The translations under genes and the position numbers were made by a program. From Acidobacteriota bacterium (GTDB lineage Bacteria > Acidobacteriota > Thermoanaerobaculia > UBA5066 > Gp7-AA6): a stretch of DNA of 48,852 nt. Positions 19,999 through 46,025 of this stretch are shown here, in pieces; the first letter of the stretch is position 1, and each line of letters opens with the position of its first letter. The stretch spans positions 1 to 48,852 of the forward strand of contig JBKPMI010000053.1 of the NCBI GenBank assembly GCA_046732075.1, written 5' to 3'. The notes below the pieces were generated by a model that saw nothing but the letters and a program-made list of their open reading frames with translations, made no database searches and was not told where the DNA came from.

Positions 19999-21492
19999 AT
20001 GCAACGGCAGATCCTGTTCGCCACACTCTTTCTTTCCGCTGCACTTTTCCGGGCCCAGGAGATTCCGCTGAACAACTGGACCGTGCCCCCCTATTCGGCG
20101 GCGTCCGCCGGCGGCATCCATACGATGACCGACGTCATCGCGCCGCGAGCGTTCGTCGCCGTCCAGCCGTGCCGGATCGCCGACACCCGCGGCAACGGCG
20201 CTCCGATCCAGGGTGGAACTTTCGGGAGCAGCGAATCGCGAAACTGGTCGGTGGGCGGAGTTTGCGGCCTTCCGAACGGTTTCAACCCGGCGGCGATCTC
20301 GGTCAACTTCACCGTGGTCAGCGCGGCCGCGACCCCGCAGGGCGCGTTTCTTCTCGCGTGGCCGACCGGATCCCCACCCGCCAACGCCGTGGCGATCATG
20401 ACCTTCGGGCCCGGCACCACGGTCATCTCGAACGCGGCGATCGTGCCGATTAACGCCGCAGCGCAGTTGACGGTCAACGTGAGCAACTCGACTCACGTCA
20501 TCATGGACGTGAACAGCTACTTCAGCGATGCCCCCGCGAACCCGGCCAGCAGTCTCCTGCTGGTGACCTCCGGTGGCGCTCCGACGGCAAACTTCCGCAA
20601 CGCCTCATCAGCCTGCGCCATCAACGGATGCGCGATCAACGGAAGCGCCGACACGAACTCCGGCACGGCCGTCGCGGGCGTTGCTCCCTTTGGGGGAAGC
20701 AGCTCCGCCGGGCTCTTCGGCAGCCAGGGGATCCCGGCGCTCGGGAATCACCTTCCGGCGCCCGGGTATCCCGGGGCGGGCGTTCGCGGCGAGAGCCGCA
20801 CGCTGGGGGTCCTCGGCATCACGAACTCGAGCGTTGCCGGCAGCGTCGCCGTCGCGGGTTCGCTCCTCAACACCTCCGGCGCACCCCTGGCCGAGGGATA
20901 CGTCGGCTATCACACCGCGGGCCTGAACTACGGGCTCTTCACGACGGCGAACCTCGGGGGCGCCGGATCGAAGTTTTTCGTGGAGCCTCACCCCACGGAC
21001 GCCTCCAAGGTCATTCGGTACATCTCGCTCGAGGGACCCGAGACGGGAACGTACTTCCGCGGCCGCGGGAAGTTTCAGCGCGGGATGGCGCGGATCGCGG
21101 TCCCCGAAGACTTCCGGATGGTGACCGCGGAGGACGGCCTGAGCGTCCAGGTCACTCCGATCGGAGGGATGGCTTCGGTCGGAGTCCTGAGGGTGAACCT
21201 GAACGAAATCGTCATCGCCGGGTCGAGGGATCTCGAGTTCTATTACACGGTCAACGGTATCCGGCGAACGCAGAAGCATCTGACTTCTCCAATCGGCGAG
21301 GGCACCGAGTTCATGCCTCGATCGCCGGATGCGCAGATGCCGCTGTCGTTCAGCGAGGAGCAGAGGCGCCTCCTCATACAGAACGGGACATACAAGGCGG
21401 ACGGCACGGTCAACCTGGAAACCGCCCGCCGATTGGGGTGGGACCGGACATGGGAAGAGCGCTCACACCCCGGCCCGCAACCCGCCGAGTAG
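19999..21492 (+). CDS. secreted tripartite paralog 4 (type-B C-module)
   Basis: ATG at 19999 follows GGGAGG, giving MQRQILFATLFLSAALFRAQE. It has N-module NWTVPPYSAAS...QPCRIADTRGNGAPIQGGTF and C-module KFFVEPHPTDASKVIRYISLEGPETGTYFRGRGKFQRG. Confidence 0.9.
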   Translation: MQRQILFATLFLSAALFRAQEIPLNNWTVPPYSAASAGGIHTMTDVIAPRAFVAVQPCRIADTRGNGAPIQGGTFGSSESRNWSVGGVCGLPNGFNPAAISVNFTVVSAAATPQGAFLLAWPTGSPPANAVAIMTFGPGTTVISNAAIVPINAAAQLTVNVSNSTHVIMDVNSYFSDAPANPASSLLLVTSGGAPTANFRNASSACAINGCAINGSADTNSGTAVAGVAPFGGSSSAGLFGSQGIPALGNHLPAPGYPGAGVRGESRTLGVLGITNSSVAGSVAVAGSLLNTSGAPLAEGYVGYHTAGLNYGLFTTANLGGAGSKFFVEPHPTDASKVIRYISLEGPETGTYFRGRGKFQRGMARIAVPEDFRMVTAEDGLSVQVTPIGGMASVGVLRVNLNEIVIAGSRDLEFYYTVNGIRRTQKHLTSPIGEGTEFMPRSPDAQMPLSFSEEQRRLLIQNGTYKADGTVNLETARRLGWDRTWEERSHPGPQPAE

Positions 21493-21543: not shown

Positions 21544-23172
21544 ATGCACAGAACTCTCCGTCTGGTGCTTCTCGGCGGACTCGTTTCCTCCTTCGGCGTA
21601 GCGCAAGAAGTGAACGTGCCGCTACAGAACTGGACCGTTCCACCGTACACGACGGCTTCGACCGGCGGCATCCGCACGATGACCGACGTCTCGGGTCCGC
21701 GGCCCTTCGTGCCGATCGTGCCGTGCCGGGTCGCCGACACGCGTGGCAACGGGGCTCCGATCACAGGAGGCATCTTTGCCAATAGCGAGGCGCGTGACTG
21801 GCTGATCTGGGGCAAGTGTGGGATTCCCTCGGGCGCGGATGCGATCTCCGTCAACTTCACCGTCGTGAGCGCGGCGGCGACGCCGCAGGGCGCCTTTCTT
21901 CTCGCATGGCCGACGGGATCGCCGCCGCCTCCCGGCTCCATCACGGCGATCGTCACCTACGGTCCGGGCGTCACGGTCATCTCCAACGCCGCGATCGTCC
22001 CCCTCGGGCAAAGCGCCGGACAGATGACCGTGAACGTCAGCAACTCGACCCACATCATCATGGACGTCAACGGGTACTTCTCCGACATCCTTCAGATGCC
22101 CTTGAACGGCTTCGCGGTCAGGAACGAGTCGAACGCGATCCCGACCATGGACGTCCGAAATGACGCCTCGAACTGCACGCTCCCGGACGGCTGTGCGATT
22201 CGCGCATCGAGTTTTACTGGAAATGCCGTCTCGGGTTACGCGCAGCAGCCCGGCACGGCCGCCACGTACGGGGTTCGAGGAAGTGTCTCGTCGCAGGGGC
22301 CGCTCGCCGCAGGCGTGAAAGGCGAGGGCTATTACAGAGGCATCCACGGGGCGGGAGCAAACGTCACCGACGCCTCGGGAGTCTTCGGAAACTTCGGCGT
22401 CACCCTGGTGGTCGGTAGTTCCTATGGTCCGTACCTCCCGCACGGCGTTCGAGGAGAGGGGTCGCTGGGAGGCGTGCTCGGAATCTCGCCCTACGAGGGC
22501 GTCGCCGGCTCTCTGCTCAACGCCTCGGGCGGCGAGATCGCGTGGGGCGCACTCGGTCTCGCGCTGAACGTCGCCACCGACCCGGGCTGCCCCACGAATC
22601 CCTGCAGCGGCCCCTGGGCGGTCATGGCCGGCGGCAACATCGGCGCCACCGGAAACAAGTATTTTCTGGAACCGCACCCGACAGATCCCAACCTCTCAAT
22701 CGCGTACATTTCACTCGAGGGGCCGGAGGCCGGAACGTATTTCCGCGGCCGCGGGCGGTTCCTGAACGGCACCGCACGGATCCCGGTGCCGGAGCACTTT
22801 CGTCTCGTCACCGATCCGGAAGGTCTGACGGTTCAGATCACGCCGATCGGCGAAATGGCGAGCTTCGCCGTCGTTCGGATGGGACTCGACGAGATCGTCG
22901 TAAAGGCGTCGCGCAACGTCGAGTTCTCGTATCTGGTGCAGGGAGTTCGGGCGAGCTTCCGGGACGCGCAGCCGTTGCGGCAGGGGGGCGATTTCATGCC
23001 GAGATCTCCGGACGCGAAAATGCCGCTCTGGCTCTCTCCGGCGCAGAGACGGACTCTCGTTCGGAACGGAACGTATCGCGAGGACGGCACCGTTAACATG
23101 GAGACCGCCCGACACCTCGGTTGGGACAAGGTCTGGGAAGAGCACGCGCCGGGCGGACCCGAAGAACGCTAG
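21544..23172 (+). CDS. secreted tripartite paralog 5 (type-B C-module)
   Basis: ATG follows CAGGAGG. The signal peptide is MHRTLRLVLLGGLVSSFGVAQE. It has N-module NWTVPPYTTAS...VPCRVADTRGNGAPITGGIF, a long Gly-rich core and C-module KYFLEPHPTDPNLSIAYISLEGPEAGTYFRGRGRF. Confidence 0.9.
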   Translation: MHRTLRLVLLGGLVSSFGVAQEVNVPLQNWTVPPYTTASTGGIRTMTDVSGPRPFVPIVPCRVADTRGNGAPITGGIFANSEARDWLIWGKCGIPSGADAISVNFTVVSAAATPQGAFLLAWPTGSPPPPGSITAIVTYGPGVTVISNAAIVPLGQSAGQMTVNVSNSTHIIMDVNGYFSDILQMPLNGFAVRNESNAIPTMDVRNDASNCTLPDGCAIRASSFTGNAVSGYAQQPGTAATYGVRGSVSSQGPLAAGVKGEGYYRGIHGAGANVTDASGVFGNFGVTLVVGSSYGPYLPHGVRGEGSLGGVLGISPYEGVAGSLLNASGGEIAWGALGLALNVATDPGCPTNPCSGPWAVMAGGNIGATGNKYFLEPHPTDPNLSIAYISLEGPEAGTYFRGRGRFLNGTARIPVPEHFRLVTDPEGLTVQITPIGEMASFAVVRMGLDEIVVKASRNVEFSYLVQGVRASFRDAQPLRQGGDFMPRSPDAKMPLWLSPAQRRTLVRNGTYREDGTVNMETARHLGWDKVWEEHAPGGPEER

Positions 23173-25346: not shown

Positions 25347-27188
25347 ATGAAGAGGGCTCGAGTTTCGCGGAAGGAGTCGAGCGCGCGTCATCCAGGCGAC
25401 CTCATCGGCAGGTCGCAGAGGACGCCTCTTCGAAGGACGGTCATGTCTGCGGGCCTCGCGGCGGTTCTGATCACTTCGAGCCTGTCCGCCCAGGATGTTC
25501 CCCTCCACAACTGGACGGTTCCGCCCTATTCGGCGACCAGCGGCAGCGGGATCCACACGATGACCGACGCGACGCCGCCCCGCGCCTTCGTGGGACTCGT
25601 CCCCTGCCGCGTCGCGGACACCCGGGGCAACGGCGCTCCGATCCAAGGCGGCATCTTCGGCAACAGCACGGCGCGCGACTGGACGGTGTCGGGAATTTGC
25701 GGGATCCCGGCGGGCGCCGATGCGATCTCCGTCAACTTCACCGTCGTCAGTACCGCGGCGACTCCGCAGGGAGCATTCCTTCTCGCCTGGCCGACCGGAT
25801 CGCCGCCTGCCAACCCGGTGGCGATCATGACCTACGGTCCCGGTGTCACGGTCATTTCCAACGCGGCGATCGTGCCGCTGAACGGATCCGGGCAGCTGAC
25901 CGTCAACGTCAGCCATTCGACGCACGTCATCATGGACGTCAACGGGTACTTTTCCGACAGGATCGGGAACCCGGCCAACTACCTCGAACTGTGGAACAAC
26001 GCTCCCGGCCTCCCGACGGCGTTCATCGTCAATTCTTCGACCGCGGACAATTCCTCCGGCGTATACGGCGTGGCCGCGGGCGGCGCGGCCACTCCGCTCT
26101 ATCCGGCGGCAGGCGTGCACGGGGAGAGTCCGTTCTTGGGCGTTCTCGGCGCCTCGTTTGCGCGGGGCGTCGTCGGAAGCCTCATGTCAACGCCGAACCC
26201 TTTCTCGTCGGAGCTCGCCCAAGGAATTCTCGCCTACCATGTCGACATTGCCGATCCCGCGATCCATGGTCTGGACGTCGGCGCCTTCGGCCAAACGGCA
26301 AGCTCGGTCGCCCAGTCGGCCGGCGTCATCGGCTACAACACAGCGCAGACCGGTGCGGTGGCCGGCGTCCGCGGCGTCATCGGCAGTCAGTCCGCCGGCG
26401 CGGCCGGGGTGCGGGGGCAGGACGGAGGGGGCGCTGTCGGTAACCCCAACGGTCAAAAGGCCGAATTCCCTTACCGAGCGAGCACCGGAGTACGGGGCGA
26501 ATCCCACCTGAACAACGGAGTCTTCGGGCTCACGAACCTGGGAATTGGGGTCATGGGCGAGGCGATCAACGCCAATGGTTTTGTCAATGCGTACGGCTTT
26601 CTGGGCCGCGGCGGCAACACGAATCTGGGCGTCTACGCGGGCGGAAGCTTCGAGGCCAGCGGGTCGAAGAGCTTCGTGGACCCGCATCCCACTGACCCAT
26701 CGAAAGTGATCCGGTATTACTCGCTCGAAGGACCCGAGTCCGGCACGTATTTCCGGGGGCGGGGAAAGTTCGAGCGCGGGATCGCGCAAATCACCGTGCC
26801 CGACGACTTCCGCATGGTCACGGATCCCGGCGGTCTCACCGTGCAGGTGACCCCGATCGGCAGCATGGCGTCCTTCGCGGTGCTTCGAGCAGATTTGAAC
26901 GAGATCGTCGTGCAGTGCTCGAGAAACGTCGAGTTCTATTACCTGGTCCAGGGAGTCCGCGCGACTCATCCAGATCTCAAACCATTCGGCCCCGGGGACG
27001 AGTTCCGGCCGGAAAGTGCCGACGCCCGGCTCCCCCTCTGGTTGTCGGAAGGTCAGAAACGGCTTCTGATCCAGAACGGCACCTACAACGCGGACGGCAC
27101 GGTCAACATGGAGACCGCGCGTCGTCTCGGGTGGGACAAGATCTGGGAAGAACGCTCCCGACCCGAGCCGCAACCGACGGAACCCTGA
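25347..27188 (+). CDS. secreted tripartite paralog 6 (longest core, type-B C-module)
   Basis: ATG at 25347 follows GAAAGGAG; an alternative start at 25443 gives MSAGLAAVLITSSLSAQD. It has N-module NWTVPPYSATS...VPCRVADTRGNGAPIQGGIF, a G[VI]xG-rich core at about 25953-26663, and C-module SKSFVDPHPTDPSKVIRYYSLEGPESGTYFRGRGKFERG. Confidence 0.85.
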   Translation: MKRARVSRKESSARHPGDLIGRSQRTPLRRTVMSAGLAAVLITSSLSAQDVPLHNWTVPPYSATSGSGIHTMTDATPPRAFVGLVPCRVADTRGNGAPIQGGIFGNSTARDWTVSGICGIPAGADAISVNFTVVSTAATPQGAFLLAWPTGSPPANPVAIMTYGPGVTVISNAAIVPLNGSGQLTVNVSHSTHVIMDVNGYFSDRIGNPANYLELWNNAPGLPTAFIVNSSTADNSSGVYGVAAGGAATPLYPAAGVHGESPFLGVLGASFARGVVGSLMSTPNPFSSELAQGILAYHVDIADPAIHGLDVGAFGQTASSVAQSAGVIGYNTAQTGAVAGVRGVIGSQSAGAAGVRGQDGGGAVGNPNGQKAEFPYRASTGVRGESHLNNGVFGLTNLGIGVMGEAINANGFVNAYGFLGRGGNTNLGVYAGGSFEASGSKSFVDPHPTDPSKVIRYYSLEGPESGTYFRGRGKFERGIAQITVPDDFRMVTDPGGLTVQVTPIGSMASFAVLRADLNEIVVQCSRNVEFYYLVQGVRATHPDLKPFGPGDEFRPESADARLPLWLSEGQKRLLIQNGTYNADGTVNMETARRLGWDKIWEERSRPEPQPTEP

Positions 27189-29351: not shown

Positions 29352-30965
29352 ATGGACACGGGAGGTTGGGTGAAACCGGGTCGGCTCGCTTTGGGTCTCT
29401 TCCTCGGTGCGGCCGGGCTCCACGCCCAGGCCGACGTCCCTCTTTCGAACTGGACGGTGCCCCCATATGCAGCCTCCTCCGCGGGCGGCATCACCACGAT
29501 GACCGACGTCACGCAGGGAATCGGGTTCGTCGGGATCACACCCTGCCGGGCCGCCGATACGCGCGGCAACGGCGCCCCGATCCAGGGGGGCATCTTTCCC
29601 GACAGCGGTCTGCGGACGTGGGACCTGACCGGGATCTGCGGCATTCCCGCGGGTGCCGATGCGGTCTCGGTCAATTTCACGGTCGTTCCAACCGTGGCGG
29701 CGCCCTCCGGGGCGTTCCTTCTGGCGTGGCCGACCGGCCAGGCGCCCCCGCCCACCGCGATCATGACTTACGGGCCGGGCCAGACGATCATCTCGAACGC
29801 GGCGATCGTGCCTCTCGGCGCCGGCGAGCAGATGCAGGTCAACGTCAGCCACTCGACTCACGTCATCATGGACGTCAACGGATACTTCACGGACGCCTAC
29901 AACCCCGGGGTCCGTTTTACAGCAACCATCTCGGGGGTGGGAGGGGCGGTCCAAGGGAGAAACGTCGCGACTCTGGCGGGTGCATACGGGGTCGAGGGCA
30001 GCATTTCAACGACAACCTCGGCAAACAGCTCTGCCGGGGTGCGCGGCATCAACGACGGGACGGGAGCCGCCGGAATCGGAGTCTGGGGATCCCAGGCCGG
30101 CAGCGGCTGGGGCGTCTTCGGCGAAGCGCCGACGGGCTTCGGCGTCGTCGGGAGAGTCGCAACGGACATCGCCAACAGGGCCGGAGTGCTGGGACAGTCG
30201 GGATTCGTCACTCCGGCTGGCAGCTACTCGACGGCGGGCGTTCGTGGCGAAGGGAGAGCCGGCGTGCTCGGGGTCAGCGGAAACTTCCTGGGCGGAGGTG
30301 AAGCAGTCGTCGGGTCTCTGGTCGACGGCTTCGGCGCCGAGATCCGATACGGTTCACTCGCAACCAGTTTCGGAGTCAATCCCTCGGGCGGCAGTGCTCC
30401 CTGGGCGGTCTTCGGGGGCGGAGACATCGGCGCGACCGGGACGAAACACTTCCTCGACCCGCATCCGACCGACGCGGCCAAGGAAATCGCCTATATCTCG
30501 CTCGAAGGGCCGGAGGCCGGGACGTATTTCCGCGGGCGCTCCAAGTTCCAGAACGGCATGGCGCGGATTCCCGTGCCCGACCATTTCCGTTTCGTGACGG
30601 ATCCGGAGGGTCTGACCGTGCAGATCACGCCAATTGGGGCGATGGCGAGCGTCGCCGTCCTGAAGATGGACTTGAACGAGATCGTCGTCCAGGCTTCCCG
30701 CAACGTGGAGTTCTCCTACCTGGTTCAGGGAGTTCGCTCCACGTTCAAGGACCTTTCCCCGATCCGGGAAAGCGGCGACTTCATGCCCCGGTTCGCCGAC
30801 GCGAAGATGCCGGGGTGGTTGAGTCCCGCTCAAAAGCGCCTGCTCATCCAGAACGGGACCTACCGGGAGGACGGCACGGTCAATTCGGAGACCGCGCAAC
30901 GTCTGGGTTGGGACAAGGTCTGGGAGCAGCGCTCCCGACCCGCGCCGCAAGCCTCCCAGCCCTAA
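29352..30965 (+). CDS. secreted tripartite paralog 7 (type-B C-module)
   Basis: ATG at 29352 follows GAAAGGAG, giving MDTGGWVKPGRLALGLFLGAAGLHAQAD. It has N-module NWTVPPYAASS...TPCRAADTRGNGAPIQGGIF and C-module KHFLDPHPTDAAKEIAYISLEGPEAGTYFRGRSKF. Confidence 0.9.
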   Translation: MDTGGWVKPGRLALGLFLGAAGLHAQADVPLSNWTVPPYAASSAGGITTMTDVTQGIGFVGITPCRAADTRGNGAPIQGGIFPDSGLRTWDLTGICGIPAGADAVSVNFTVVPTVAAPSGAFLLAWPTGQAPPPTAIMTYGPGQTIISNAAIVPLGAGEQMQVNVSHSTHVIMDVNGYFTDAYNPGVRFTATISGVGGAVQGRNVATLAGAYGVEGSISTTTSANSSAGVRGINDGTGAAGIGVWGSQAGSGWGVFGEAPTGFGVVGRVATDIANRAGVLGQSGFVTPAGSYSTAGVRGEGRAGVLGVSGNFLGGGEAVVGSLVDGFGAEIRYGSLATSFGVNPSGGSAPWAVFGGGDIGATGTKHFLDPHPTDAAKEIAYISLEGPEAGTYFRGRSKFQNGMARIPVPDHFRFVTDPEGLTVQITPIGAMASVAVLKMDLNEIVVQASRNVEFSYLVQGVRSTFKDLSPIRESGDFMPRFADAKMPGWLSPAQKRLLIQNGTYREDGTVNSETAQRLGWDKVWEQRSRPAPQASQP

Positions 30966-36158: not shown

Positions 36159-36165
36159 CGGCCCA

Positions 36166-36361: not shown

Positions 36362-37945
36362 ATGAAGTTCTCGAAACAACTCGGTTTCGGAATCACTCTC
36401 CTGCTTCTCGCCTCCGGTTTCGGCCTTGCCCAGAACATTCCCCTGAACAACTGGACCGTTCCGCCCTACGCGCAGTCGTCGCACAGCGGCGGCATCACGA
36501 CTATGACCGACGTGACGTCTCCCCGGGCATTCGTCGGCGTTCAGCCCTGCCGCGTCGCCGATACCCGTGGAAATGGCGCGCCCATCCAGGGCGGGATCTT
36601 CCCCAACAGCGGCCTGCGCACATGGGACGTCACCGGCATCTGCGGGATCCCCGCCGGCGCCGATGCGATCTCGGTGAACTTCACCGTCGTTGCGGCCGCC
36701 GGAATCCCGGCCGGCTCGTTCCTGCTGGCCTGGCCGACTGGCCAGGCGCCCCCGCCCACCGCGATCATGACTTATGGGCCGGGTCAGGTCATTTCGAACG
36801 CGGCGATCGTGCCGCTCGGCCCGGGTGAGCAGCTGAACGTCAACGTCAGCGGAAGCACCCACGTGATCATGGACGTCAACGGCTATTTCTCCGACAGGCT
36901 GCAGGATCCGACCCACTTTCTGGAGATTGACAACAACTCCACCGGGTACACGATTCGTATCGACAACGCATCCACATCCTGCAACGGCGCCTGCGGGCTG
37001 AGAGCGACCACGGCGAGCGGCTGGGCCGTCTCGGGTTACTCTCCGACTGACGTCGGTGTGAGGGGCGATTCAGACAGCTATAACGGCGTGTGGGCGCAGG
37101 CGACGAACTGGGACGCGCTCGCGGCCTTCGGCGGGCGAGACGGCGGCTATCTCCAGGGCGCGCGGCACGGGGCCATCGGCACGTCGACCAATACAACCGA
37201 TGCCGTATACGGCGTCATCGGAAGCGGTGTCTCCGCCAACGTCTTTTCGGCAGGCGTCTCCGGTCAGGTCAACCACGCGGCCGCGAATGCGGCTCGGTTC
37301 ATCAACAGCGGTCTTTCCAACGCGGACGTCTATGTCGGGACCAATTCCGGCGGCGTCGAATATGGTGTCCTGGCGCCCAACCTCAGGCTCCAAGCCGGTT
37401 CGCTCGTCATCACGGGGGCCACGAAGAACTTCGCGGCGCCTCACCCCGAAGACCCTTCGAAGGAGATCAAGTACGCCTCCGTTGAAGCTCCGACGGTGGA
37501 CGTCTATTTCCGGGGAACCGCGGAGCTCGTCAACGGAATCGCGCGGATCGCGATCCCGGATCACTTTCGTTTCACGGCGCGGGAAGGGACCTACATGACG
37601 ACGCTGACGCCAGTCGGTCGATCGGTTACCCTGAGCGTCGATCAGGAAGGTCCTGACGGAATCGTTGTTCGCGGCTCAGGAACCACTCGATTCCACTATG
37701 TCGTTTTCGCCGAGCGTGCCGAAATAGAAGGCTTCGAGCCCGTCCAGCGAAACGAAAGCTTCACTCCCGAAATGCTCGAAAGAGGTGGCGGTCCTCAGCA
37801 CCTTCCGGCACCGACGAGAGCACTTCTCGTGCGGAACGGGACCCTGAATCCCGACGGCACGTATAACCTCGAAACGGCGCGCGCCCTGGGCTGGACGATT
37901 CCCGAGCGTCCGACAGTGGCTCCGGCGCCCATTCCGAACCCCTGA
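36362..37945 (+). CDS. secreted tripartite paralog 8 (type-A C-module)
   Basis: ATG follows AAAGGAGGG. The signal peptide is MKFSKQLGFGITLLLLASGFGLAQN. It has N-module NWTVPPYAQSSHSGGITTMTD...QPCRVADTRGNGAPIQGGIF. The C-module KNFAAPHPEDPSKEIKYASVEAPTVDVYFRGTAELVNG...REGTYMTTLTPVG is closest to paralog 1. Confidence 0.9.
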   Translation: MKFSKQLGFGITLLLLASGFGLAQNIPLNNWTVPPYAQSSHSGGITTMTDVTSPRAFVGVQPCRVADTRGNGAPIQGGIFPNSGLRTWDVTGICGIPAGADAISVNFTVVAAAGIPAGSFLLAWPTGQAPPPTAIMTYGPGQVISNAAIVPLGPGEQLNVNVSGSTHVIMDVNGYFSDRLQDPTHFLEIDNNSTGYTIRIDNASTSCNGACGLRATTASGWAVSGYSPTDVGVRGDSDSYNGVWAQATNWDALAAFGGRDGGYLQGARHGAIGTSTNTTDAVYGVIGSGVSANVFSAGVSGQVNHAAANAARFINSGLSNADVYVGTNSGGVEYGVLAPNLRLQAGSLVITGATKNFAAPHPEDPSKEIKYASVEAPTVDVYFRGTAELVNGIARIAIPDHFRFTAREGTYMTTLTPVGRSVTLSVDQEGPDGIVVRGSGTTRFHYVVFAERAEIEGFEPVQRNESFTPEMLERGGGPQHLPAPTRALLVRNGTLNPDGTYNLETARALGWTIPERPTVAPAPIPNP

Positions 37946-37968: not shown

Positions 37969-37997
37969 GGCCGCGGCGACGCCGCGGCCTTTTTTTT
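37969..37997 (+). terminator. rho-independent terminator (hairpin family 2)
   Basis: GGCCGCGGC-GAC-GCCGCGGCC followed by TTTTTTTT. Confidence 0.85.
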
Positions 37998-38102
37998 GGC
38001 GAGCCGAAGATCTTCCAGCCGCGGCGTTCGTCTCGGCTTCGCCCGGAATTTACAGAACGCCTGTGATACCAGTCACAGCGCCTTCTCACACCTTGGAATT
38101 CG

Positions 38103-38131
38103 TTGCGTTTGCACCAGGCCGGCGCTAGCAT
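38103..38131 (+). promoter_or_regulatory. sigma70-like promoter candidate for paralog 9
   Basis: TTGCGT (38103-38108), a 17-nt spacer, then TAGCAT (38126-38131). The conserved leader begins 7 nt downstream, the same geometry as at 36130-36166. Confidence 0.45.
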
Positions 38132-38137
38132 TTCTCC

Positions 38138-38328
38138 ATTCCGGCGGCCTGCGGACCTGGGGGAGGAGGCGGCCATCGATTCCGTCGCAACTGGTGTACC
38201 GGGCGCGGTCTTGCCCGCGGGGGCGGCAGCTTGCTCTATCCCTGACATTTCAACCGGATCGAAAGGAGGCGGGACACGACAATTGCTCTCGCGGTAAGAA
38301 CTTGGAGAGGTCTAAAGGAGGTACTCGG
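38138..38328 (+). ncRNA. conserved long 5' leader of paralog 9 (candidate cis-regulatory RNA)
   Basis: Homologous to 36166-36361. It has a hairpin CGCGG-TCTTGC-CCGCG at 38204-38219 and the conserved box CAACCGGATCGAAAGGAGGCGGGA at 38251-38274. Confidence 0.45.
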
Positions 38329-39879
38329 ATGAAGTCTCCCAAATGGATCGGATTCGGGATCGTTCTGCTGCTTCTCGTCTCAGGCGTCCTCGTCGCTCAG
38401 GACATACCGCTCAACAACTGGACCGTTCCGCCTTACACGCAGTCGTCGCACAGCGGCGGCATCACGACGATGACCGACGTCACAACCGCTCATCCGTTCG
38501 TCGGCGTTGCGCCCTGCCGCGTCGCCGATACCCGTGGCAATGGCGCTCCGATCCAAGGCGGCATTTTTGCCAACAGCGCCGAGCGCACGTGGGATCTCAC
38601 CGGAATCTGCGGAATTCCCGCGGGCGCGGAGGCGATCTCGGTGAACTTCACCGTCGTCGCCGCGGCCGGGATCCCGGCCGGCTCCTTCCTGCTCTCCTGG
38701 CCCACCGGAGGATCACCCCCGCCGACGGCGATCATGACCTACGGCCCGAACCAGGTTCTCTCGAACGCGGCGATCATCGTGCTCGGCCCGGGCGAGCAGG
38801 TCGAGATCAACGTCAGCGGAAGCACGCACATCATCATGGACGTCAACGGCTATTGGGCTCCGATCGCGGCTGCCGCGAACAACGCCCTCGTCTGGGAGAC
38901 GAGCAATACGGGCACGTTCGGAGCGGCGCGGATCCGCAACCTCGGAACTGGCCCGAACGTGCACGGCGTGACGGCGTTCACGGACTCGGTCGGCGCGGGT
39001 TCCGCCGGTCTGTTCGGACAAGCGACGGCGACGACGGCCACCGAAGTCTACGGGGTTCGGGGCCTCTCAGCCAGCAGCGGCGGGGACACGGCCGGCGTTT
39101 TCGGAGTCGCAGATTTCCGACCCGACGACAACTCTACTTGGAGCAAGGCCGGCGTCCGAGGGGAGAGCGCCGAGGGCTTTGGAGTGTTCGGCATCAGCGA
39201 GTACAGCGCGGTGCGGGGTCTCCTGACCGCGAATACAACCGGTGTCGGCCTCGCCAACGGCTACCTCGGTAACTCCTTCGGCGTCGACCCGAGTGGCGGC
39301 GGTGCCCCATGGGCGGTGTTCGGGCTCGGGGACATCGGGGCGAGCGGGACGAAGTTCTTCGTGGAACCCCACCCCACCGACGCCTCGCTCGTAATCAAAT
39401 ACGCCACGCTCGAAGGGCCCGAGGTGGGGACCTATTTCCGCGGCCGTGCGAAGTTCGATCGTGGCACGGCGACGATCTCCGTGCCCGAAACTTTCCGGAT
39501 GGTGACTTCCGAGGAAGGGCTGAGCATCCAGGTGACACCGATCGGGGAAATGGCCACGGTTGCGGTCGTGCAGCTCAGCCTCGACAAGATCGTCGTCAAG
39601 GGATCTCGCAACGTGGAGTTCTTCTACACGGTCAACGGCGTCCGCCGGGGCTTCGAGCAGATGCAGGTTCTCGCGCACGACTTCATGTTCGTGCCCGATT
39701 CGAAGGACGCGCCGATTCCGGCATGGTTGAGTTCCCATGAGAGACAGAGTCTCATCTCAAACGGAACGTACACGCCCGATGGCAAGGTCAACGCAGAGAC
39801 CGCGCAGCGCCTCGGATGGGATCGGATCTGGGAAGCTCGGGCTCATCCGCAACCTCGCCCGGAACCCAGCACGCCCTGA
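38329..39879 (+). CDS. secreted tripartite paralog 9 (type-B C-module)
   Basis: ATG at 38329 follows AAAGGAGG and lies in frame within the 37966..39879 ORF, giving MKSPKWIGFGIVLLLLVSGVLVAQD. It has N-module NWTVPPYTQSSHSGGITTMTD...APCRVADTRGNGAPIQGGIF and C-module KFFVEPHPTDASLVIKYATLEGPEVGTYFRGRAKFDRG. Confidence 0.9.
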   Translation: MKSPKWIGFGIVLLLLVSGVLVAQDIPLNNWTVPPYTQSSHSGGITTMTDVTTAHPFVGVAPCRVADTRGNGAPIQGGIFANSAERTWDLTGICGIPAGAEAISVNFTVVAAAGIPAGSFLLSWPTGGSPPPTAIMTYGPNQVLSNAAIIVLGPGEQVEINVSGSTHIIMDVNGYWAPIAAAANNALVWETSNTGTFGAARIRNLGTGPNVHGVTAFTDSVGAGSAGLFGQATATTATEVYGVRGLSASSGGDTAGVFGVADFRPDDNSTWSKAGVRGESAEGFGVFGISEYSAVRGLLTANTTGVGLANGYLGNSFGVDPSGGGAPWAVFGLGDIGASGTKFFVEPHPTDASLVIKYATLEGPEVGTYFRGRAKFDRGTATISVPETFRMVTSEEGLSIQVTPIGEMATVAVVQLSLDKIVVKGSRNVEFFYTVNGVRRGFEQMQVLAHDFMFVPDSKDAPIPAWLSSHERQSLISNGTYTPDGKVNAETAQRLGWDRIWEARAHPQPRPEPSTP

Positions 39880-39903
39880 CCAGGTGGATCTCTGAATCTC
39901 GAA

Positions 39904-39932
39904 GGCCGCGGCGGGCGCCGCGGCCTTTTTTT
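39904..39932 (+). terminator. rho-independent terminator (hairpin family 2)
   Basis: GGCCGCGGC-GGGC-GCCGCGGCC followed by TTTTTTT. The stem arms are the same as at 37969. Confidence 0.85.
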
Positions 39933-39983
39933 GCCGCGCAATCTCTTGAACCGTCGCTCCTGCTCCGTTATCGTGTTTCCGGC

Positions 39984-41546
39984 TTGAACGTTTTCCCTCT
40001 GGCGCGCCGGTGCCCGGGGAGGGTCGTCGGCGCGCGGCGGGCTCTCCTCGGATTTCTCGGAGGTCTGCTCTTCCTCTCCGGGCAGGCTCCGGCGGCCACC
40101 TACTCGGTCGCGCGGTTCTCCGACACGCCGATCGTCTCGGGTCTCTCTTCCCCCACCGACCTCGCGTTCCTGCCGGACGGACGGATCCTCATCCTGGAGA
40201 AGGCGGGCCGCGTCCGGATCGTCGTGAACGGAGTGCTGCAGGCAACTCCGGCCCTCGACATCACCGGGATCGTGGACGACTTTTCGGAGAGGGGCCTGCT
40301 CGGGATCTGCCTCCACCCGAACTTCGCAGCGACCGGCTGGATCTACCTGTACTACACGACGAACGCCCCCCGGAACCAGATCTCGCGCTTCACGCTGACC
40401 GGGAACACGATCAGCGCTGCGAGCGAATTGCCCATCCTCCAGGACATCGAGGCGACCAACGGCAACCACAACGGCGGCACGATTGCGATCGGGCCGGATG
40501 GAAAACTCTGGGCCGCGCCGGGAGACTCCGGGACCGGAGGGGCCAAAGCCCAGGATCTCGCGGCGGCAAGCCCGAGCCGGTTCAACGGGAAGGTCCTGCG
40601 GATGGAGCTCGACGGCTCCCCCGCGGCCGGCAACCCGTTTCTCGGGGACGCAACCAAGGAGCCTCGGATCTGGGCGTACGGGTTTCGGAATCCGTTTCGA
40701 TTCTCGTTCCGCCCGAATGGTTCGCTCTACGTGGGCGACGTCGGCCAGTCGACCCGGGAAGAGCTCGACGTCGTCACGGCCGGCGGCAACTACGGCTGGC
40801 CCTATATGGAAGGCTTCATCCAGCAGCCGGGTGGTCCGGGGCCGTGTCCCGTGACGACGACCTGCCTTCCGCCGGTCTTCGACTACATCCGTTCGGTCGG
40901 GACCACGATCATCGGCGGCGTCTTCGTGACCGGCAACGCCTACCCCACTCTTACGGGCCGGTACGTCTTCGGCGACAACGGCTCGAGCTGGATCAAGTGG
41001 CTGGAGTTCGACGGGAACGACGCGTTGATCGGGACGCCGCCGACGGCGCCTTCTCCGGCCCTTCACGACCTGGCGACGGCGGCGTCGGGCCCCGTCGCTT
41101 TCCACCCGGCGCCCGACGGGAACCTCTACTACATCGGGATCAACACCGGAACCGTCTATCGCATCGACTACGCGCGGGATTTCTTCACCGTCACGCCCTG
41201 CCGCGTCTTCGACACGCGGGACCCCGCGGGACCGTGGGGAGGGCCGAGCCTCATCGGGGGCCAGGATCGCACGTTCGCGATCGCCGGCCGCTGCGGTATT
41301 CCGTCGACGGCGCGCGCCGTCTCGGTCAACGTGACCGTGACCGGCCCGACCGCGCCCGGCTTCCTGACGCTCTTCCCGGCCGGCGGGCCGCCGCCGCTCG
41401 CGAGCACGATCAACTTCCGCGCGGGTCAGACCCGCGCGAACAACGCGGTCGTGACCCTCGGCGGGGCGGGGGACATCGTCGTCCGGGCAGGCATGGCCTC
41501 CGGGAACGTCCACGTGATCCTGGACGTCAACGGCTACTTCGACTGA
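39984..41546 (+). CDS. secreted PQQ-dependent sugar dehydrogenase-like beta-propeller with C-terminal CRxDTR module
   Basis: In frame with the 39816..41546 ORF. The likely start is the TTG at 39984 (uncertain), ahead of a signal-like ARRALLGFLGGLLFLSGQAPAA. GSDH-family motifs are present (GLLGICLHPNF, NHNGGTIAIGPDGKLW, GFRNPFRFSF, GGNYGWP). The last ~121 aa (41181-41543) read FFTVTPCRVFDTRDPAGPWGG...RCGIPSTARAVSVNVTVT...LTLFPAG...INFRAGQTRANN...ILDVNGYFD, then the stop. Confidence 0.8.
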   Translation: MNVFPLARRCPGRVVGARRALLGFLGGLLFLSGQAPAATYSVARFSDTPIVSGLSSPTDLAFLPDGRILILEKAGRVRIVVNGVLQATPALDITGIVDDFSERGLLGICLHPNFAATGWIYLYYTTNAPRNQISRFTLTGNTISAASELPILQDIEATNGNHNGGTIAIGPDGKLWAAPGDSGTGGAKAQDLAAASPSRFNGKVLRMELDGSPAAGNPFLGDATKEPRIWAYGFRNPFRFSFRPNGSLYVGDVGQSTREELDVVTAGGNYGWPYMEGFIQQPGGPGPCPVTTTCLPPVFDYIRSVGTTIIGGVFVTGNAYPTLTGRYVFGDNGSSWIKWLEFDGNDALIGTPPTAPSPALHDLATAASGPVAFHPAPDGNLYYIGINTGTVYRIDYARDFFTVTPCRVFDTRDPAGPWGGPSLIGGQDRTFAIAGRCGIPSTARAVSVNVTVTGPTAPGFLTLFPAGGPPPLASTINFRAGQTRANNAVVTLGGAGDIVVRAGMASGNVHVILDVNGYFD

Positions 41547-41775
41547 CGCTTTTTCTGGACTCTCGGCCCCTACTGGGTTAGCTTCGGAGCCGACTCAAGT
41601 CTGTCAATCGGAACCGGGAGTGCTGACAAATCACGGCCGCGGGCCGGAGATTTGCTCGACCAAGCTACTTTCTATCAATGGGTTGCTCATTTTCCGGGGT
41701 GGCGCGGAAGTTGCCTTTCTTTCCCCCTGAATCCAATCCGGTTTATCCACTTTCGGGGTACTCGAGGAGAGGCAT

Positions 41776-43512
41776 GTGAAGTCACTGGCCGCGCTCATCG
41801 CCCTTGCCGGGGCGCTGCCGCTTTCCGCCGCTTCCCTGCCGAGCCCGCTGCGCTACTTCACCCACCCCGGCATCGCGGTCGAGCGCGCGGCGGCCGCCGG
41901 CGAGCGTCTACTCGACCTCGACCCGCGTGGCCTGGCTCGTCTCCGGCAGATTCCCGACCGCGAGGCCTTGACGCTCGAGAACTTTCCCTTTGCGCCGGGT
42001 GCGACCGGGAACCTCATCCTGGAGCGTTTCGAGATCGTCTCCCCGGACGGCCGGCTGATCGTCGAGGGACCCGACGGTGAGACGTCGCGGCCGCTTGCCC
42101 GCGGCATCCACTTCGAGGGTCACCTCGAGGGGGAGCCGGACTCCCGCGTCTACGTCGGCGTGCCGGGTGATTTTCTGGTGGCTGTCCTCCAGACGAGCGC
42201 CGGGCTCGTTTACGTGGGGCCGGACGGCCCGACGGAGGGACCGATCCAGCACGTCGTCCGGCGTTCCGACTCGCTCCGCTCGGTCGAACTCGCGCCGCTC
42301 GACTGGCACTGCGACGCCGACGACCTGACTCCTCCGCCGATCGAACGCTCGGGCCCGGGTCTGCGAGCGGAAACCGTGGCGGCCGTGTCCCGGCCGGCGG
42401 CGGCCTCCCTGTCCGCGCTCGCCGCGACGACGCTGAAAGACGCCGCGATCTCGATCGAGACCGACCAGGAGCTCCTGGCGAAGTTCCCCGGCGGCCTCGA
42501 CGCCATGACCTCCTACATCACGACGCTGATGGCGCAGAACTCGGTCATCTACCAGCGCGACCTCGGTGTCCACCTGACGGTCAACCGGATCCAGGCCTGG
42601 ACGTCGACCGACCCGTACGTCAAGACCGACACGCGCGGCCAGCTCGACGAGGTCGGCGACTGGTGGCATGCCAATCGGCCGAAGAGCTCCTATCCGCGAA
42701 CGGTCGTCACCTTTCTGAGCGGAAAATCCGTGACCGGCGGAATTGCGTGGCTGGACGTGCTCTGCGCCAACGACTTCTCCCAGAGCAATCACTGGGGAGG
42801 CGGGTACGGCGTGGTCCAGATCAACACGAGCTGGCCCTCCAACCTGTGGGACCTGCTGGCGACCGCCCACGAGCTGGGACACAACTTCGGTTCTCCCCAC
42901 ACGCATTGCTACAGCCCGCCGATCGACATGTGCTACTCGGGCGAGAGCGGTTGCTACAGCGGGACGGTGGTGAACCCCGGGCCGCTCGGCGGCACGATCA
43001 TGAGCTACTGTCACCTGCTCGTGGGGGGCTACGGGAACATCGACATGCGGTTCCATCAACGGTGCATAACCGAGCAGATGCTGCCCGAGATCAACGCCGT
43101 CGCCTGCCTGACCGACATGGCCGCGCCGGCGCCGGTCGCGACGAAGTTCTACACGGTCACCCCGTGCCGCGTGGCCGACACGCGCAACCCGACCGGACCC
43201 TACGGTGGACCGGCGATAGCCGCCAACTCGGACCGGACGTTCGCCGTCGGAGGACAGTGCGGGGTTCCCACGACCGCCACGGCCGTTTCGTTGAACGTCA
43301 GCGTCACCCAGCCGAGCGCGCTCGGATACCTCCGGCTCTACGCGGGCGGGACCTCCCTGCCGAACGCGACCGCGATCAACTACCGCGCGGGGCAAACCCG
43401 CGCCAACAACGGATTTGCGCCTCTGGGGACGGCCGGGACTCTGGCCGTCCACTGCGATCAGCCTTCCGGAAACGTGCAGGTTATAATCGATGTTAACGGC
43501 TATTTTCAGTAG
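41776..43512 (+). CDS. secreted reprolysin/M12B-like zinc metalloprotease with C-terminal CRxDTR module
   Basis: GTG start follows GAGGAGAGG. The signal peptide is MKSLAALIALAGALPLSAAS and the zinc site is TAHELGHNFGSPH (HExxHxxGxxH). The C-terminal module at 43147-43509 reads FYTVTPCRVADTRNPTGPYGG...QCGVPTTATAVSLNVSVT...INYRAGQTRANN...IIDVNGYFQ, then the stop. Confidence 0.85.
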   Translation: MKSLAALIALAGALPLSAASLPSPLRYFTHPGIAVERAAAAGERLLDLDPRGLARLRQIPDREALTLENFPFAPGATGNLILERFEIVSPDGRLIVEGPDGETSRPLARGIHFEGHLEGEPDSRVYVGVPGDFLVAVLQTSAGLVYVGPDGPTEGPIQHVVRRSDSLRSVELAPLDWHCDADDLTPPPIERSGPGLRAETVAAVSRPAAASLSALAATTLKDAAISIETDQELLAKFPGGLDAMTSYITTLMAQNSVIYQRDLGVHLTVNRIQAWTSTDPYVKTDTRGQLDEVGDWWHANRPKSSYPRTVVTFLSGKSVTGGIAWLDVLCANDFSQSNHWGGGYGVVQINTSWPSNLWDLLATAHELGHNFGSPHTHCYSPPIDMCYSGESGCYSGTVVNPGPLGGTIMSYCHLLVGGYGNIDMRFHQRCITEQMLPEINAVACLTDMAAPAPVATKFYTVTPCRVADTRNPTGPYGGPAIAANSDRTFAVGGQCGVPTTATAVSLNVSVTQPSALGYLRLYAGGTSLPNATAINYRAGQTRANNGFAPLGTAGTLAVHCDQPSGNVQVIIDVNGYFQ

Positions 43513-43524
43513 GATTAGGAGACC

Positions 43525-44016
43525 ATGATGAACAGATCTCAGTTGGTTCGCTTTTCGTTCCTCTTCGCCGCGGCGACCTTTTTGACGGTCTCCGCAGCCC
43601 GAGCCGTTGGACCGCTGCAGTTCTACTCCGTCACGCCGTGCCGCATCGCCGACACGCGCGCCGCCGTCGGAGTGAACGGGGGACCGATCCTTTCGCACGG
43701 CGTGATCCGCAACTTCGCCGTCTACACGACCCCCGCGAACTGCGGCTTGCCCGCGGACGGCACGGTCAAGGCCGTCACGCTGAATGTGACCGTCGTCAAC
43801 CCGACCAGCCTGGGCCACCTGACGGTCTTCCCGTACAACACGACGGTTCCGGTCGTTTCGACCATCAACTACGCAGCGGGCGAGCCGGCTCTCGGAAACG
43901 GCGCCATCGTTCCGGTGACGAACGATCCGAACTTCCAGATCTCCGTCCTCCCGGTCCTGGTCGGAACCGGCAACACGGTGCACGCGATCATCGACATCAC
44001 GGGTTACTTCAAGTAA
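43525..44016 (+). CDS. stand-alone secreted CRxDTR-module protein
   Basis: 163-aa ORF 12 nt after the protease stop, with an AGGAG ribosome-binding site. The signal peptide is MMNRSQLVRFSFLFAAATFLTVSAARA. A single module follows at 43621-44013: FYSVTPCRIADTRAAVGVNGG...NCGLPADGTVKAVTLNVTVV...LTVFPYN...INYAAGEPALGN...IIDITGYFK, then the stop. Confidence 0.85.
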   Translation: MMNRSQLVRFSFLFAAATFLTVSAARAVGPLQFYSVTPCRIADTRAAVGVNGGPILSHGVIRNFAVYTTPANCGLPADGTVKAVTLNVTVVNPTSLGHLTVFPYNTTVPVVSTINYAAGEPALGNGAIVPVTNDPNFQISVLPVLVGTGNTVHAIIDITGYFK

Positions 44017-44061
44017 TCGAAATCCGGAAACCGGCGATCGGCAAAACTCGTTGACGGAAGC

Positions 44062-44094
44062 GACGGAGGCGATTTCGCCGCCGTCGTTTCTCTC
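44062..44094 (+). terminator. possible rho-independent terminator after the protease/stand-alone-module pair
   Basis: Imperfect hairpin GACGGAGGCG-ATTT-CGCCGCCGTC (one A/G mismatch) followed by GTTTCTCTC. Confidence 0.35.
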
Positions 44095-44189
44095 GTCCGT
44101 CGCGGAATCCGCGAGGGACCCGTTCTCCCGGCCGATCGCCGTCTCCGAGTGGCCATGACCCGAACAACGGACGCGATTCGAAAGGCCGC

Positions 44190-46025
44190 ATGAGGAGAAA
44201 TCCGCTCCTTCCTGCGCTTCTCCTGCTGGCGACGCTCCCCGCCGCCGCCCGGGCGGCGCTGAACACGCCCCCTCTCCGAGCGGGTTGGCCCGTGGCACTG
44301 GCCGGCGCCGGAACCGTCCGCGTGAGCCAGCCGGCGGTGGGAGACCTCGACAACGACGGCGTGAAGGAGATCGTGGTCGGCACGGTGAATCGGAAGGTCT
44401 ACGCCCTCCGGGCCAACGGAACGGTCATGCCGGGCTGGCCCGTCACCGTGAGCGCCGAAGTGAACTCGAGCCCCGCGCTCGCAGACATCGATGGCGACGG
44501 ATTCCTCGACGTCGTGGTGGCCTGCGGGTCGAATTTCGATTCCACAGGGAACGGGCGGCTCTACGTCTTCCGGCGCGACGGAACCCTCATCTGGTCGTTC
44601 ACGCCGGTCGACGAAAACGGCGACGGACATCCGGAGGGGATCTACTCGACGCCCGCCATCGGGGACATCGATGGCGACGGGGACAACGAGATCGTTTTCG
44701 GATGCTGGGACTTCCGGGTTTACGTCCTGCGCAAGGACGGTACGCCGATGCCCGGTTTCCCGCCGAATCCGTCCGGCCTCGGACACGGGATCCGCGACAC
44801 GATCTGGTCCTCGCCCGCGCTCGCCGACCTCGACGGCGACGGAAAGCTCGAGGTCATCATCGGGGCGGACACGCACGCGGAGGGCCCGCCGATCAACACG
44901 CCGGACGGCGGCGCGATCCACGTCTTCCGCTGGAACGGGACGGAACTGCCGGGTTTCCCGCAGTACGTGAACCAGACGATCGTGTCGTCGCCGGCGGTGG
45001 GCGACATCGACGGCGATGGATACCTCGACATCGTCGTGGGGGGCGGCATCTACTACCCGGGCGCGGTCGGCCACCAAGTCTACGCGTGGAAGCGGGACGG
45101 GACGTTCGTTCCGGGCTGGCCGGTCACGACGACCGGCCAGGTCCTCGCCTCTCCGACTCTCGCGGACCTGACGGGCGACGGAAAACCCGAGGTGATCGTC
45201 GGCGACCAGCCGGAGGGGACGGCCGGCCCCTACCTCTACGCGTTCCGGGGAAACGGAACGCAGCTCTTCAAGATGCAGCCGAAGAGCTATTTCGGAACGA
45301 GCCCGAACGTCGGAGATCCGATCGTGGCCGACGTGACCGGCGACGGCCAGGTCGAAATCCTGGTGGCCGTCAACACTGAGATCGCGGTGATCGATCGGAC
45401 CGGCGTGCAACTCACCGACCCGGGCCCTCCCGGGAACGATCCCCGCCCGACCTATTACACGGAGACCGCAGTTTCCGGGGTGGTCGTCACGGACCTCGAC
45501 CACGACGGAGTTCTCGACGTCATCGCCGCGTCCGGTACCCCGTTCCCGTCTCCGACCGCCGCCGCGGTCTACGTCTGGAACCCGGCCGCGGTCGGACCGG
45601 CTCCGTGGCCCGCGTTTCGCGGCGACCCGCAGCAGCGGCGCGGCTACGAGGGGGCGATCATCGGTGCGGGCACGCGATTCTTCACGTTGACTCCGTGCCG
45701 GCTCTTCGACACGCGGGGCGGCTCCTCGCTCAAGGCCGGCGGCATGGCGGTCGCCGGAGTCGCGGCGCGATGCGGAGTTCCCCCGGGCGCCGAGGCGGTC
45801 GCCCTGAACGTCACGATCGTCCTCCCCGGAACTGCCGGCAACCTCCGCCTCTTCCCGGACGGGATTCCGACGCCGCTTTCGTCCACGATCAACTTCCGCG
45901 CGGGCCAGGTCCGCGCGAACAACGCGGTGCTCGCGCTCTCCCCCTTCGGGAACCTGCGCATCTTCTGCGACATCCCGACGGGATTCGCGGACGTGATCCT
46001 GGACGTCACCGGATACTTCCAGTAA
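44190..46025 (+). CDS. secreted FG-GAP/VCBS-repeat (integrin-alpha-like beta-propeller) protein with C-terminal CRxDTR module
   Basis: 611-aa ORF with signal peptide MRRNPLLPALLLLATLPAAARA. It has eight DxDGDG-type repeats (GDLDNDGVKEIVVG, ADIDGDGFLDVVVA, GDIDGDGDNEIVFG, ADLDGDGKLEVIIG, GDIDGDGYLDIVVG, ADLTGDGKPEVIVG, ADVTGDGQVEILVA, TDLDHDGVLDVIAA). The C-terminal module at 45678-46022 reads FFTLTPCRLFDTRGG...RCGVPPGAEAVALNVTIV...LRLFPDG...INFRAGQVRANN...ILDVTGYFQ, then the stop. Confidence 0.88.
   Translation: MRRNPLLPALLLLATLPAAARAALNTPPLRAGWPVALAGAGTVRVSQPAVGDLDNDGVKEIVVGTVNRKVYALRANGTVMPGWPVTVSAEVNSSPALADIDGDGFLDVVVACGSNFDSTGNGRLYVFRRDGTLIWSFTPVDENGDGHPEGIYSTPAIGDIDGDGDNEIVFGCWDFRVYVLRKDGTPMPGFPPNPSGLGHGIRDTIWSSPALADLDGDGKLEVIIGADTHAEGPPINTPDGGAIHVFRWNGTELPGFPQYVNQTIVSSPAVGDIDGDGYLDIVVGGGIYYPGAVGHQVYAWKRDGTFVPGWPVTTTGQVLASPTLADLTGDGKPEVIVGDQPEGTAGPYLYAFRGNGTQLFKMQPKSYFGTSPNVGDPIVADVTGDGQVEILVAVNTEIAVIDRTGVQLTDPGPPGNDPRPTYYTETAVSGVVVTDLDHDGVLDVIAASGTPFPSPTAAAVYVWNPAAVGPAPWPAFRGDPQQRRGYEGAIIGAGTRFFTLTPCRLFDTRGGSSLKAGGMAVAGVAARCGVPPGAEAVALNVTIVLPGTAGNLRLFPDGIPTPLSSTINFRAGQVRANNAVLALSPFGNLRIFCDIPTGFADVILDVTGYFQ

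Follow-up and report, generated by a model that had tools for sequence, protein, structure and literature searches.

A C-terminal module of exported Acidobacteriota proteins as a candidate tethering or assembly unit

The S-layer homology (SLH) triplet is a single pseudo-trimeric body that binds a cell-wall polymer, and type IX secretion (T9SS) is a system of the FCB group, outside which the Acidobacteriota fall. Acidobacteriota rank with the most abundant bacteria of soil and have very large exoenzyme repertoires, and we know of essentially no account of how they retain, display or organise their exoproteins. Here we analyzed a stretch of 48,852 nucleotides from an Acidobacteriota bacterium (assembly GCA_046732075.1, contig JBKPMI010000053.1, positions 1 to 48,852; hereafter the window), in which four consecutive genes for exported proteins end in the same module. 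The family to which this module belongs is large, uncatalogued and, where the organism is named, almost confined to Acidobacteriota.

Two other kinds of described protein enter the comparison. The tip of the Bdellovibrio fibre protein Bd2133 is a β-sandwich that trimerises about a three-fold axis and was without a homologue in the PDB (PMC10769870), and trimeric TNF-like jelly-roll lectins, such as BC2L-C-Nt, exist in bacteria (PMC3164656, PMC7024360). We hypothesize, with a probability of roughly 0.4, that the module is a disulfide-braced jelly-roll that forms a three-module unit at the chain end and would tether or assemble a variety of proteins exported by Sec on one shared, lineage-specific target.

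Four consecutive genes and the module family

The original prediction for the window held that four consecutive genes all end in a common module one residue before the stop codon, and the open reading frame (ORF) list for 38-48.9 kb and a six-frame motif scan bear this out, with all four genes on the plus strand. The shared ending is ...[IL][IL]D[IV][NT]GYF, followed by one residue (D, Q, K and Q, respectively) and the stop. The first gene (39984..41546, +) encodes an exported PQQ-type glucose/sorbosone dehydrogenase (GSDH) propeller with the module at its C-terminus (41172..41543, +, ending ...ILDVNGYFD; independent E-value (i-E) 9e-52 over profile positions 2-125). Its GSDH domain (PF07995, 1.4e-52) covers residues 110-403 of the ORF that begins at 39816, and the start of the gene is uncertain, with candidates at 39816, 39984 and about 40023. 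The second gene (41776..43512, +) encodes an exported reprolysin-like M12 metalloprotease (Reprolysin_5 2.4e-24, Reprolysin_3 3e-18), labelled 'Metallo-peptidase family M12' in one source record, and carries its module at 43138..43509 (+, ending ...IIDVNGYFQ; i-E 1.3e-49). The third gene (43525..44016, +), 12 nt downstream of the second, encodes a stand-alone protein of 163 aa that consists of signal peptide and module only (module 43612..44013, +, ending ...IIDITGYFK; i-E 1e-43); its module sequence was used for the structure model described below. This protein has no match in Pfam or NCBIfam and is a 'hypothetical protein' in the source records, and its orthologues in other genomes hold the same place behind a module-bearing gene. 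The fourth gene (44190..46025, +) encodes an exported FG-GAP repeat protein (FG-GAP_3 2.2e-44 over eight stretches, FG-GAP 9e-36) that ends in the module at 45669..46022 (+, ending ...ILDVTGYFQ; i-E 6.3e-41). The signal peptides of the four proteins, called by eye, are MKSLAALIALAGALPLSAASLP; MMNRSQLVRFSFLFAAATFLTVSAARAVGP; MRRNPLLPALLLLATLPAAARAAL; and ...RRALLGFLGGLLFLSGQAPAATYS.

Pfam bore out the partner domains of the original prediction, assigning them to GSDH, reprolysin-like M12 and FG-GAP (eight stretches), and the profile places the module starts within 9 nt of those first proposed. The profile was built from an alignment (A1) of 12 module copies of the window, in which 19 columns are invariant, including both Cys, DTR and D..GY. 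With it we found 13 copies in the window, four C-terminal and nine N-terminal, with a module length of about 120-135 aa. As each of the four C-terminal copies scores between 1e-41 and 1e-52 against the profile, we consider the copies homologous rather than alike by chance. Very long antisense or out-of-frame ORFs overlap the real genes throughout the window (for example, 39843-41513(-), 41908-44298(-) and 44004-45503(-)). Such artefacts are usual where DNA has 64-75% G+C, and filtering on third-position G+C (GC3) separates the real frames.

In none of the four window proteins does Pfam (2025 copy) or NCBIfam (June 2026) have a match to the ~120 C-terminal residues that they share. No T9SS C-terminal domain (CTD), PEP-CTERM, SLH, TNF/C1q or carbohydrate-binding module (CBM) model fell on the module, whether we scanned the window proteins or, at E≤1, 20 pure triple arrays, and 51 full-length relatives scanned with Pfam and NCBIfam gave scattered noise only on the module. 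We rejected matches to 'bluetail' (2 of the 20 triple arrays, 6.5e-4) and prefoldin (7 of 20) as noise, since near-identical arrays do not share them. A TIGRFAM-type 'Solibacter C-terminal domain' model did not appear among the NCBIfam matches. Searching PDB sequences with the module profile returned nothing below E 0.07; in PHROGs the stand-alone module had no match and one triple array had a weak one (1.5e-4). In the literature that we searched we found no prior description of the module; further member databases of InterPro or journals behind subscription, for example, may contain one.

Exhaustively searching 1.84 billion representative proteins, clustered at 50% identity, with HMMER gave 36,507 clusters at E≤1e-3 and, at the stricter E≤1e-30, 11,136, so that one uncatalogued domain marks tens of thousands of secreted proteins. 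A word-indexed search of 5.8 billion proteins gave 698 matches, nearly all without a precomputed Pfam domain; where a name was attached, it read 'hypothetical protein' and the source was Bryobacterales. Apart from the M12 label noted above, source records likewise name the window's own proteins 'hypothetical protein'. We also surveyed loci in one genome per species with A1 as the query, which yielded 556 confirmed loci. The best 80 of these, which we analyzed further, come nearly all from Acidobacteriota (Thermoanaerobaculia, Holophagales, Bryobacterales, Solibacteraceae and Terriglobia). One of them, L001, is a close syntenic relative (85% identity) with the gene order M12, stand-alone module, FG-GAP and PMT_2-like membrane protein.

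The position of the module is strongly biased. Of the 125 module-bearing ORFs in the 80 loci, a survey in which score weighs less than in the ranked list below, 113 carry it C-terminally (at most 5 residues from the stop), 11 N-terminally, directly after the leader (~9%), and 1 internally. Among the best 150 representatives from the cluster search, ranked by summed score, it ends within 5 residues of the C-terminus in 138. The tail after GYF is 1 residue long in 76 of 243 arrays and 2 residues long in 149 (225 together), and is never absent; in the four window proteins there is no PEP-CTERM- or LPXTG-like hydrophobic tail after ...D[IV][NT]GYF and its one residue. By a crude signal-peptide test, 82 of 124 representatives were positive, compared with 4 of 124 internal segments used as controls, and so were 49 of the 63 single-copy ORFs.

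By Pfam, the carriers are extremely diverse and include enzymes (GH10, GH16, GH44 and GH113 glycoside hydrolases; M12, M4, M64 and S8 peptidases; GSDH; multicopper oxidase) as well as FG-GAP, RCC1, NHL, Kelch and PD40 propellers, BACON, DUF11, TIG, PKD and Big domains, and Ig-like arrays. NCBIfam adds the choice-of-anchor R and Z, HAF-repeat and NF038122 metalloprotease families, members of which elsewhere carry PEP-CTERM-type or other C-terminal anchors. A lack of positional or secretory bias among fusion partners, or a match to a known carbohydrate-binding or sorting domain, had been named in advance as outcomes that would speak against a new tag; our HMM survey found strong biases of both kinds, and no such match was found in Pfam, NCBIfam or PDB sequences. 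In view of these three results, we carry forward the original prediction of a new tag as a hypothesis, with anchoring, sorting and glycan binding as candidate roles.

The module occurs mostly in one copy or in three, a rule that the original prediction did not foresee. The 125 locus ORFs hold 1 copy in 74 cases, 2 in 3 and 3 in 48, and the best 150 representatives hold 3 in 137, 6 in 11, 8 in 1 and 9 in 1. Within triple arrays the copies are position-specific: copies 1, 2 and 3 find their best match in another protein in the copy of the same number in 133, 114 and 112 of 140 cases, against about one third expected by chance, which argues that the three-module cassette has been inherited and shuffled as a unit. 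Linkers are short and of fixed length: in 303 of 381 cases, GYF and the PCR motif that follows are separated by 14-15 residues, and about nine of these residues form the first strand of the next copy. One Cys-less subfamily (P0123-P0127, P0139 and P0226) has six tandem copies per protein and different C-terminal endings, such as ...VDVSGWFGAT and ...DVSGYYVPAW, and it supplies all of the copies that lack both Cys.

Both Cys are present in 778 of 817 distinct module copies, neither in 36, and one only in 3. This near-perfect co-occurrence lends support to the disulfide suggested from the window alone, and would be consistent with an extracytoplasmic location. In the same set, R12 and D119 are found at 100% and D15, R17, N54 and N94 at 97-99%, and we take these invariant polar residues to point to a conserved interface or binding site. 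An N-x-T motif at profile positions 54-56 (N54 97%, T56 95%; for example LNVTV, about window 43690-43704) has the form of an N-glycosylation sequon and may have a purely structural role.

Module genes also cluster. Two or more module-bearing ORFs occur in 27 of the 78 loci that have any, and three loci hold six. Six consecutive or nearly consecutive single-copy module genes are found in each of L002, L005 and L053. Stand-alone genes made of signal peptide and module account for about 21 of the 63 single-copy ORFs, and at least 9 of 20 follow immediately on another gene that bears the module, the gap between the two being close to nil. Tight pairing of this kind is seen in L002, L005, L008, L011, L013, L014 and L037 and resembles the window junction 43512/43525. 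The upstream partner is often, though not always, a protease: M12 in the window, L001 and L013, S8 in L005 and L008, and M10-like in L002. This arrangement suggests co-translation and possibly co-assembly. Because tight gene pairing is what co-assembly would lead one to expect, we infer that stand-alone modules may assemble with enzyme-borne ones.

Predicted fold and candidate functions

We modelled the stand-alone module with AlphaFold2 (AF2) from a 50-sequence alignment, obtaining a predicted local distance difference test score (pLDDT) of 86.8 and a predicted TM-score (pTM) of 0.82. As the model has eight strands and no helix, the module is predicted to be a jelly-roll-type β-sandwich. Fold comparison with Foldseek against the PDB, as proposed in the original prediction, returned no close relative. 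The best PDB match was the Bdellovibrio Bd2133 fibre tip (8OND/8OK3) and was weak, with E 2e-4 to 6e-4, a query TM-score (TMq) of 0.42-0.49 and 14-17% identity. Further PDB matches were viral jelly-roll capsids, BxpB, Ena subunits, the C1q head and CBM6/36/4/16. Of these, the C1q head (6z6v), BxpB (8d02) and the capsid jelly-rolls reached Foldseek probabilities of 0.99-1.0 at TM 0.39-0.49, and the CBMs had TMq 0.33-0.41, none of them a close match. A viral library gave phage tail-fibre and tail-collar proteins, a DUF2793 protein, a collagen-repeat protein and capsids, at TMq ≤0.58.

A natural triple array (380 residues, the first row of A4) was modelled with pLDDT 91.8 and, from a 20-sequence alignment of one subfamily, pTM 0.91. 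The model predicts one rigid body and not beads on a string, and Foldseek found no global match for it in the PDB (TMq ≤0.20). Together, the 1-or-3 copy rule and this predicted rigid body suggest that the functional unit comprises three modules, and for the same two reasons such a unit would fit the alternative raised in the original prediction, that the modules oligomerise.

Our preferred reading is as follows. The module, of about 120 residues and probably with one disulfide, would be exported through the Sec pathway together with its carrier, and the working unit would most likely be three modules packed together, in a three-fold arrangement that we infer from the copy rule and from analogous proteins. 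In many relatives three tandem copies in one chain would form a rigid pseudo-trimer. Single-copy versions, such as those of the four window proteins, would trimerise with themselves or with the modules of neighbouring genes, including that of the 163-aa protein encoded behind the protease. The resulting terminal knob would serve as a non-catalytic tethering or assembly device that makes unrelated exoproteins multivalent, and its common target would most plausibly be an envelope or matrix glycan of Acidobacteriota.

Several points weigh against this reading. All structural matches behind the link to trimeric knobs are weak (TM ≤0.58), so that the link is one of generic jelly-roll resemblance. 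The pTM of the triple array comes from the single-subfamily alignment noted above, ranking the top 150 representatives by summed score favours multi-copy proteins, and using A1 as the query biases the locus survey toward relatives of the stand-alone module. All 36 Cys-less copies sit in only six six-copy proteins, and therefore stand for few independent events of Cys loss. Finally, a stand-alone anchor that carries no cargo has no obvious use, except if it assembles together with other modules.

Of the alternatives, the one that survives best, though we regard it as unlikely, is that the module serves as a CBM or lectin for substrate targeting, which would bind environmental plant, fungal or microbial polysaccharides and concentrate enzymes on their substrate instead of tethering them to the producer. 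The predicted jelly-roll fold with its weak matches to CBM6, CBM36, CBM4 and CBM16, the presence of GH10, GH16, GH44 and GH113 among the carriers and the precedent of trimeric TNF-like jelly-roll lectins in bacteria (BC2L-C-Nt) would all suit such a role. We disfavour it because most carriers are not carbohydrate-active (M12, M4, S8 and M64 proteases, PQQ dehydrogenases, multicopper oxidases, propellers and Ig arrays) and because the family is nearly restricted to one phylum, whereas substrate CBMs usually spread widely. In addition, no CBM model matched, and a 1-or-3 rule is not normal for CBM copy numbers.

Somewhat less probable still is a pure oligomerisation or folding domain, a trimerisation knob that would stabilise its carriers, make them multivalent or nucleate trimeric fibres and have no ligand of its own. 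The run of 1, 3, 6 and 9 copies and the predicted rigid triple array would be expected of such a domain, its closest folds are trimerising fibre tips (PMC10769870), and in the nine N-terminal paralogs of the window it precedes Gly-rich repeats and a C-terminal domain that matches phage families. Yet the single-chain triple array already satisfies the trimer and so would give its carrier no further oligomerisation. That the best 150 representatives most often have this very architecture argues against the idea. The invariant polar residues likewise suggest a functional site, although they might be interface residues.

Equally doubtful is a more elaborate scheme, in which the module belongs to a phylum-specific surface-display system. 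Here a three-module knob would dock on a dedicated envelope glycan or outer-membrane receptor, and adjacent single-copy modules (on the protease, the stand-alone subunit, the propeller and the dehydrogenase) would co-assemble as heterotrimers into defined multi-enzyme complexes on the cell surface. If true, it would join the anchoring logic of SLH to an assembly of the cohesin/dockerin kind, on a fold related to neither.

Least probable, and in our view improbable, is a secretion or sorting signal like the T9SS CTD, recognised by a dedicated outer-membrane machinery of Acidobacteriota and perhaps cleaved or covalently attached: the extreme C-terminal position with its 1-2-residue tail, the predicted β-sandwich, the diverse carriers, including choice-of-anchor families, and the one-phylum restriction speak for it, but a strictly C-terminal signal fits poorly with the ~9% of arrays that sit N-terminally, directly after a Sec signal peptide (the nine window paralogs among them), with the common cargo-less stand-alone genes (~21 of 63) and with three copies of ~125 aa each (~380 aa), unusually large for a signal, and neither a T9SS-CTD, PEP-CTERM or other sorting-signal model match nor, in the 48.9 kb of host DNA covered, candidate machinery was identified.

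N-terminal paralogs and neighbouring genes

The original prediction counted nine paralogs in which a related module follows the signal peptide, and the profile finds exactly nine, at E 1e-53 to 1e-64. One is on the minus strand, with its module at 6375..6749 (-; paralog 5394-7151; 1.7e-63). The other eight are on the plus strand, with modules at 17101..17472 (+; paralog 16858-18414; 4e-62), 18618..18998 (+; paralog 18426-19961; 9.8e-59), 20143..20526 (+; paralog 19885-21492; 2.3e-53), 21697..22083 (+; paralog 21544-23172; 3.7e-59), 25578..25955 (+; paralog 25074-27188; 3e-60), 29520..29891 (+; paralog 29247-30965; 5.7e-61), 36521..36892 (+; paralog 36134-37945; 1.2e-64) and 38488..38856 (+; paralog 37957-39879; 4.7e-61). 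The copy at 20143..20526, the ninth, lies outside the strict GYF pattern. Beyond the module, the paralogs consist of Gly-rich repeats of the 'GVxG' type and a conserved C-terminal domain ('KxFVxPHPTD...YFRGR...'). This domain has matches in two families of phage proteins without known function (phrog_17490, 5.6e-13; phrog_28536, 3.7e-11) and none in Pfam, and the non-module part of the paralogs has no sequence relative in the PDB. The description of the paralogs as fibre-like is plausible.

Between the paralogs lie three large regulators, 23245-25401(-), 27258-29264(-) and 33148-35082(-), two with winged-helix Trans_reg_C and TPR domains and one of the TPR/BTAD type, and GroES (32714-33073) and GroEL (31049-32710) fall within the same stretch. 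Upstream in the window are a thioredoxin-like protein (1765-2370), a UvrA-like ABC ATPase (2384-5482) and a class A penicillin-binding protein (PBP; 7009-9414).

Surface-polysaccharide genes occupy 11344-16157(-) and 35105-36079(+) and encode GT2, an initiating sugar transferase (Bac_transf) that also has a CoA-binding domain, GT4 and a GDP-mannose 4,6-dehydratase. A membrane glycosyltransferase of the PMT_2 family (GT39/ArnT-like; Pfam 3e-9) at 46006-47628(-) is convergent on the FG-GAP gene and keeps this position in the syntenic relative L001 (5253-7124(-), 73% identity), and it is a possible link to the glycosylation of envelope or module proteins. The window's module genes are thus, as first described, next to surface-glycan biosynthesis genes (GDP-mannose dehydratase, Bac_transf, GT2, GT4 and PMT_2); as evidence, this is weak.

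Implications and comparison with described systems

Were the module to prove an anchoring or assembly unit, it would define the main surface-display route of Acidobacteriota, annotate a large block of 'hypothetical' sequence at once and offer enzyme display a tag that is compact and self-assembling. On a conservative reading, too, the family merits a curated model, and the 1-or-3 rule is a clear, testable structural hypothesis.

With jelly-roll CBMs and BC2L-C-Nt the module shares its general predicted fold and its attachment to some glycoside hydrolases. It differs from jelly-roll CBMs in the absence of a sequence match, a weak structural match, mostly non-carbohydrate-active carriers, the 1-or-3 rule and its phylum restriction. 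Like the T9SS CTD of Bacteroidota, it is a small predicted β-sandwich that sits, within one phylum, at the very C-terminal end of numerous secreted proteins unrelated to one another. Unlike that domain (TIGR04183, TIGR04131), to which it has no model match, it also occurs N-terminally (11/125), in triplicate (48/125) and alone (~21/63). TNF and C1q domains (PF00229, PF00386) have the jelly-roll fold that is predicted for the module and show no sequence match to it at E≤1.

Trimeric knobs (the Bd2133 MAT fibre tip, the DUF2793 tips of phage tail fibres, C1q/TNF-like heads and BclA/BxpB) resemble the module in their β-sandwich or jelly-roll fold and extreme C-terminal position, and gave its best Foldseek matches. 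Known knobs cap fibres, whereas the module is mostly fused to globular enzymes, and to our knowledge single-chain triple arrays are not a feature of known trimeric knob families. Knobs assemble about a three-fold axis (PMC10769870), which fits the module's 1/3/6/9 copy rule. With TM at 0.42-0.58 and identity at 10-17%, homology to them is not established.

The SLH triplets of Gram-positives and some diderms are, like the module, non-catalytic, borne by diverse exoproteins at either terminus and typically present as three tandem copies. Copy numbers, positions and the pTM of 0.91 agree with this architectural analogy, the shape of the module's unit being predicted. The module departs from SLH domains in having no PF00395 match, in its predicted all-β jelly-roll fold where SLH is helical, and in its host phylum, Acidobacteriota. 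By its architecture, the module would be a terminal, non-catalytic exoprotein appendage, a kind already known; it stands out by its unusual, testable 1-or-3 architecture and its very large footprint in one phylum. By analogy, its logic appears closest to that of SLH triplets and its fold to that of trimeric fibre knobs.

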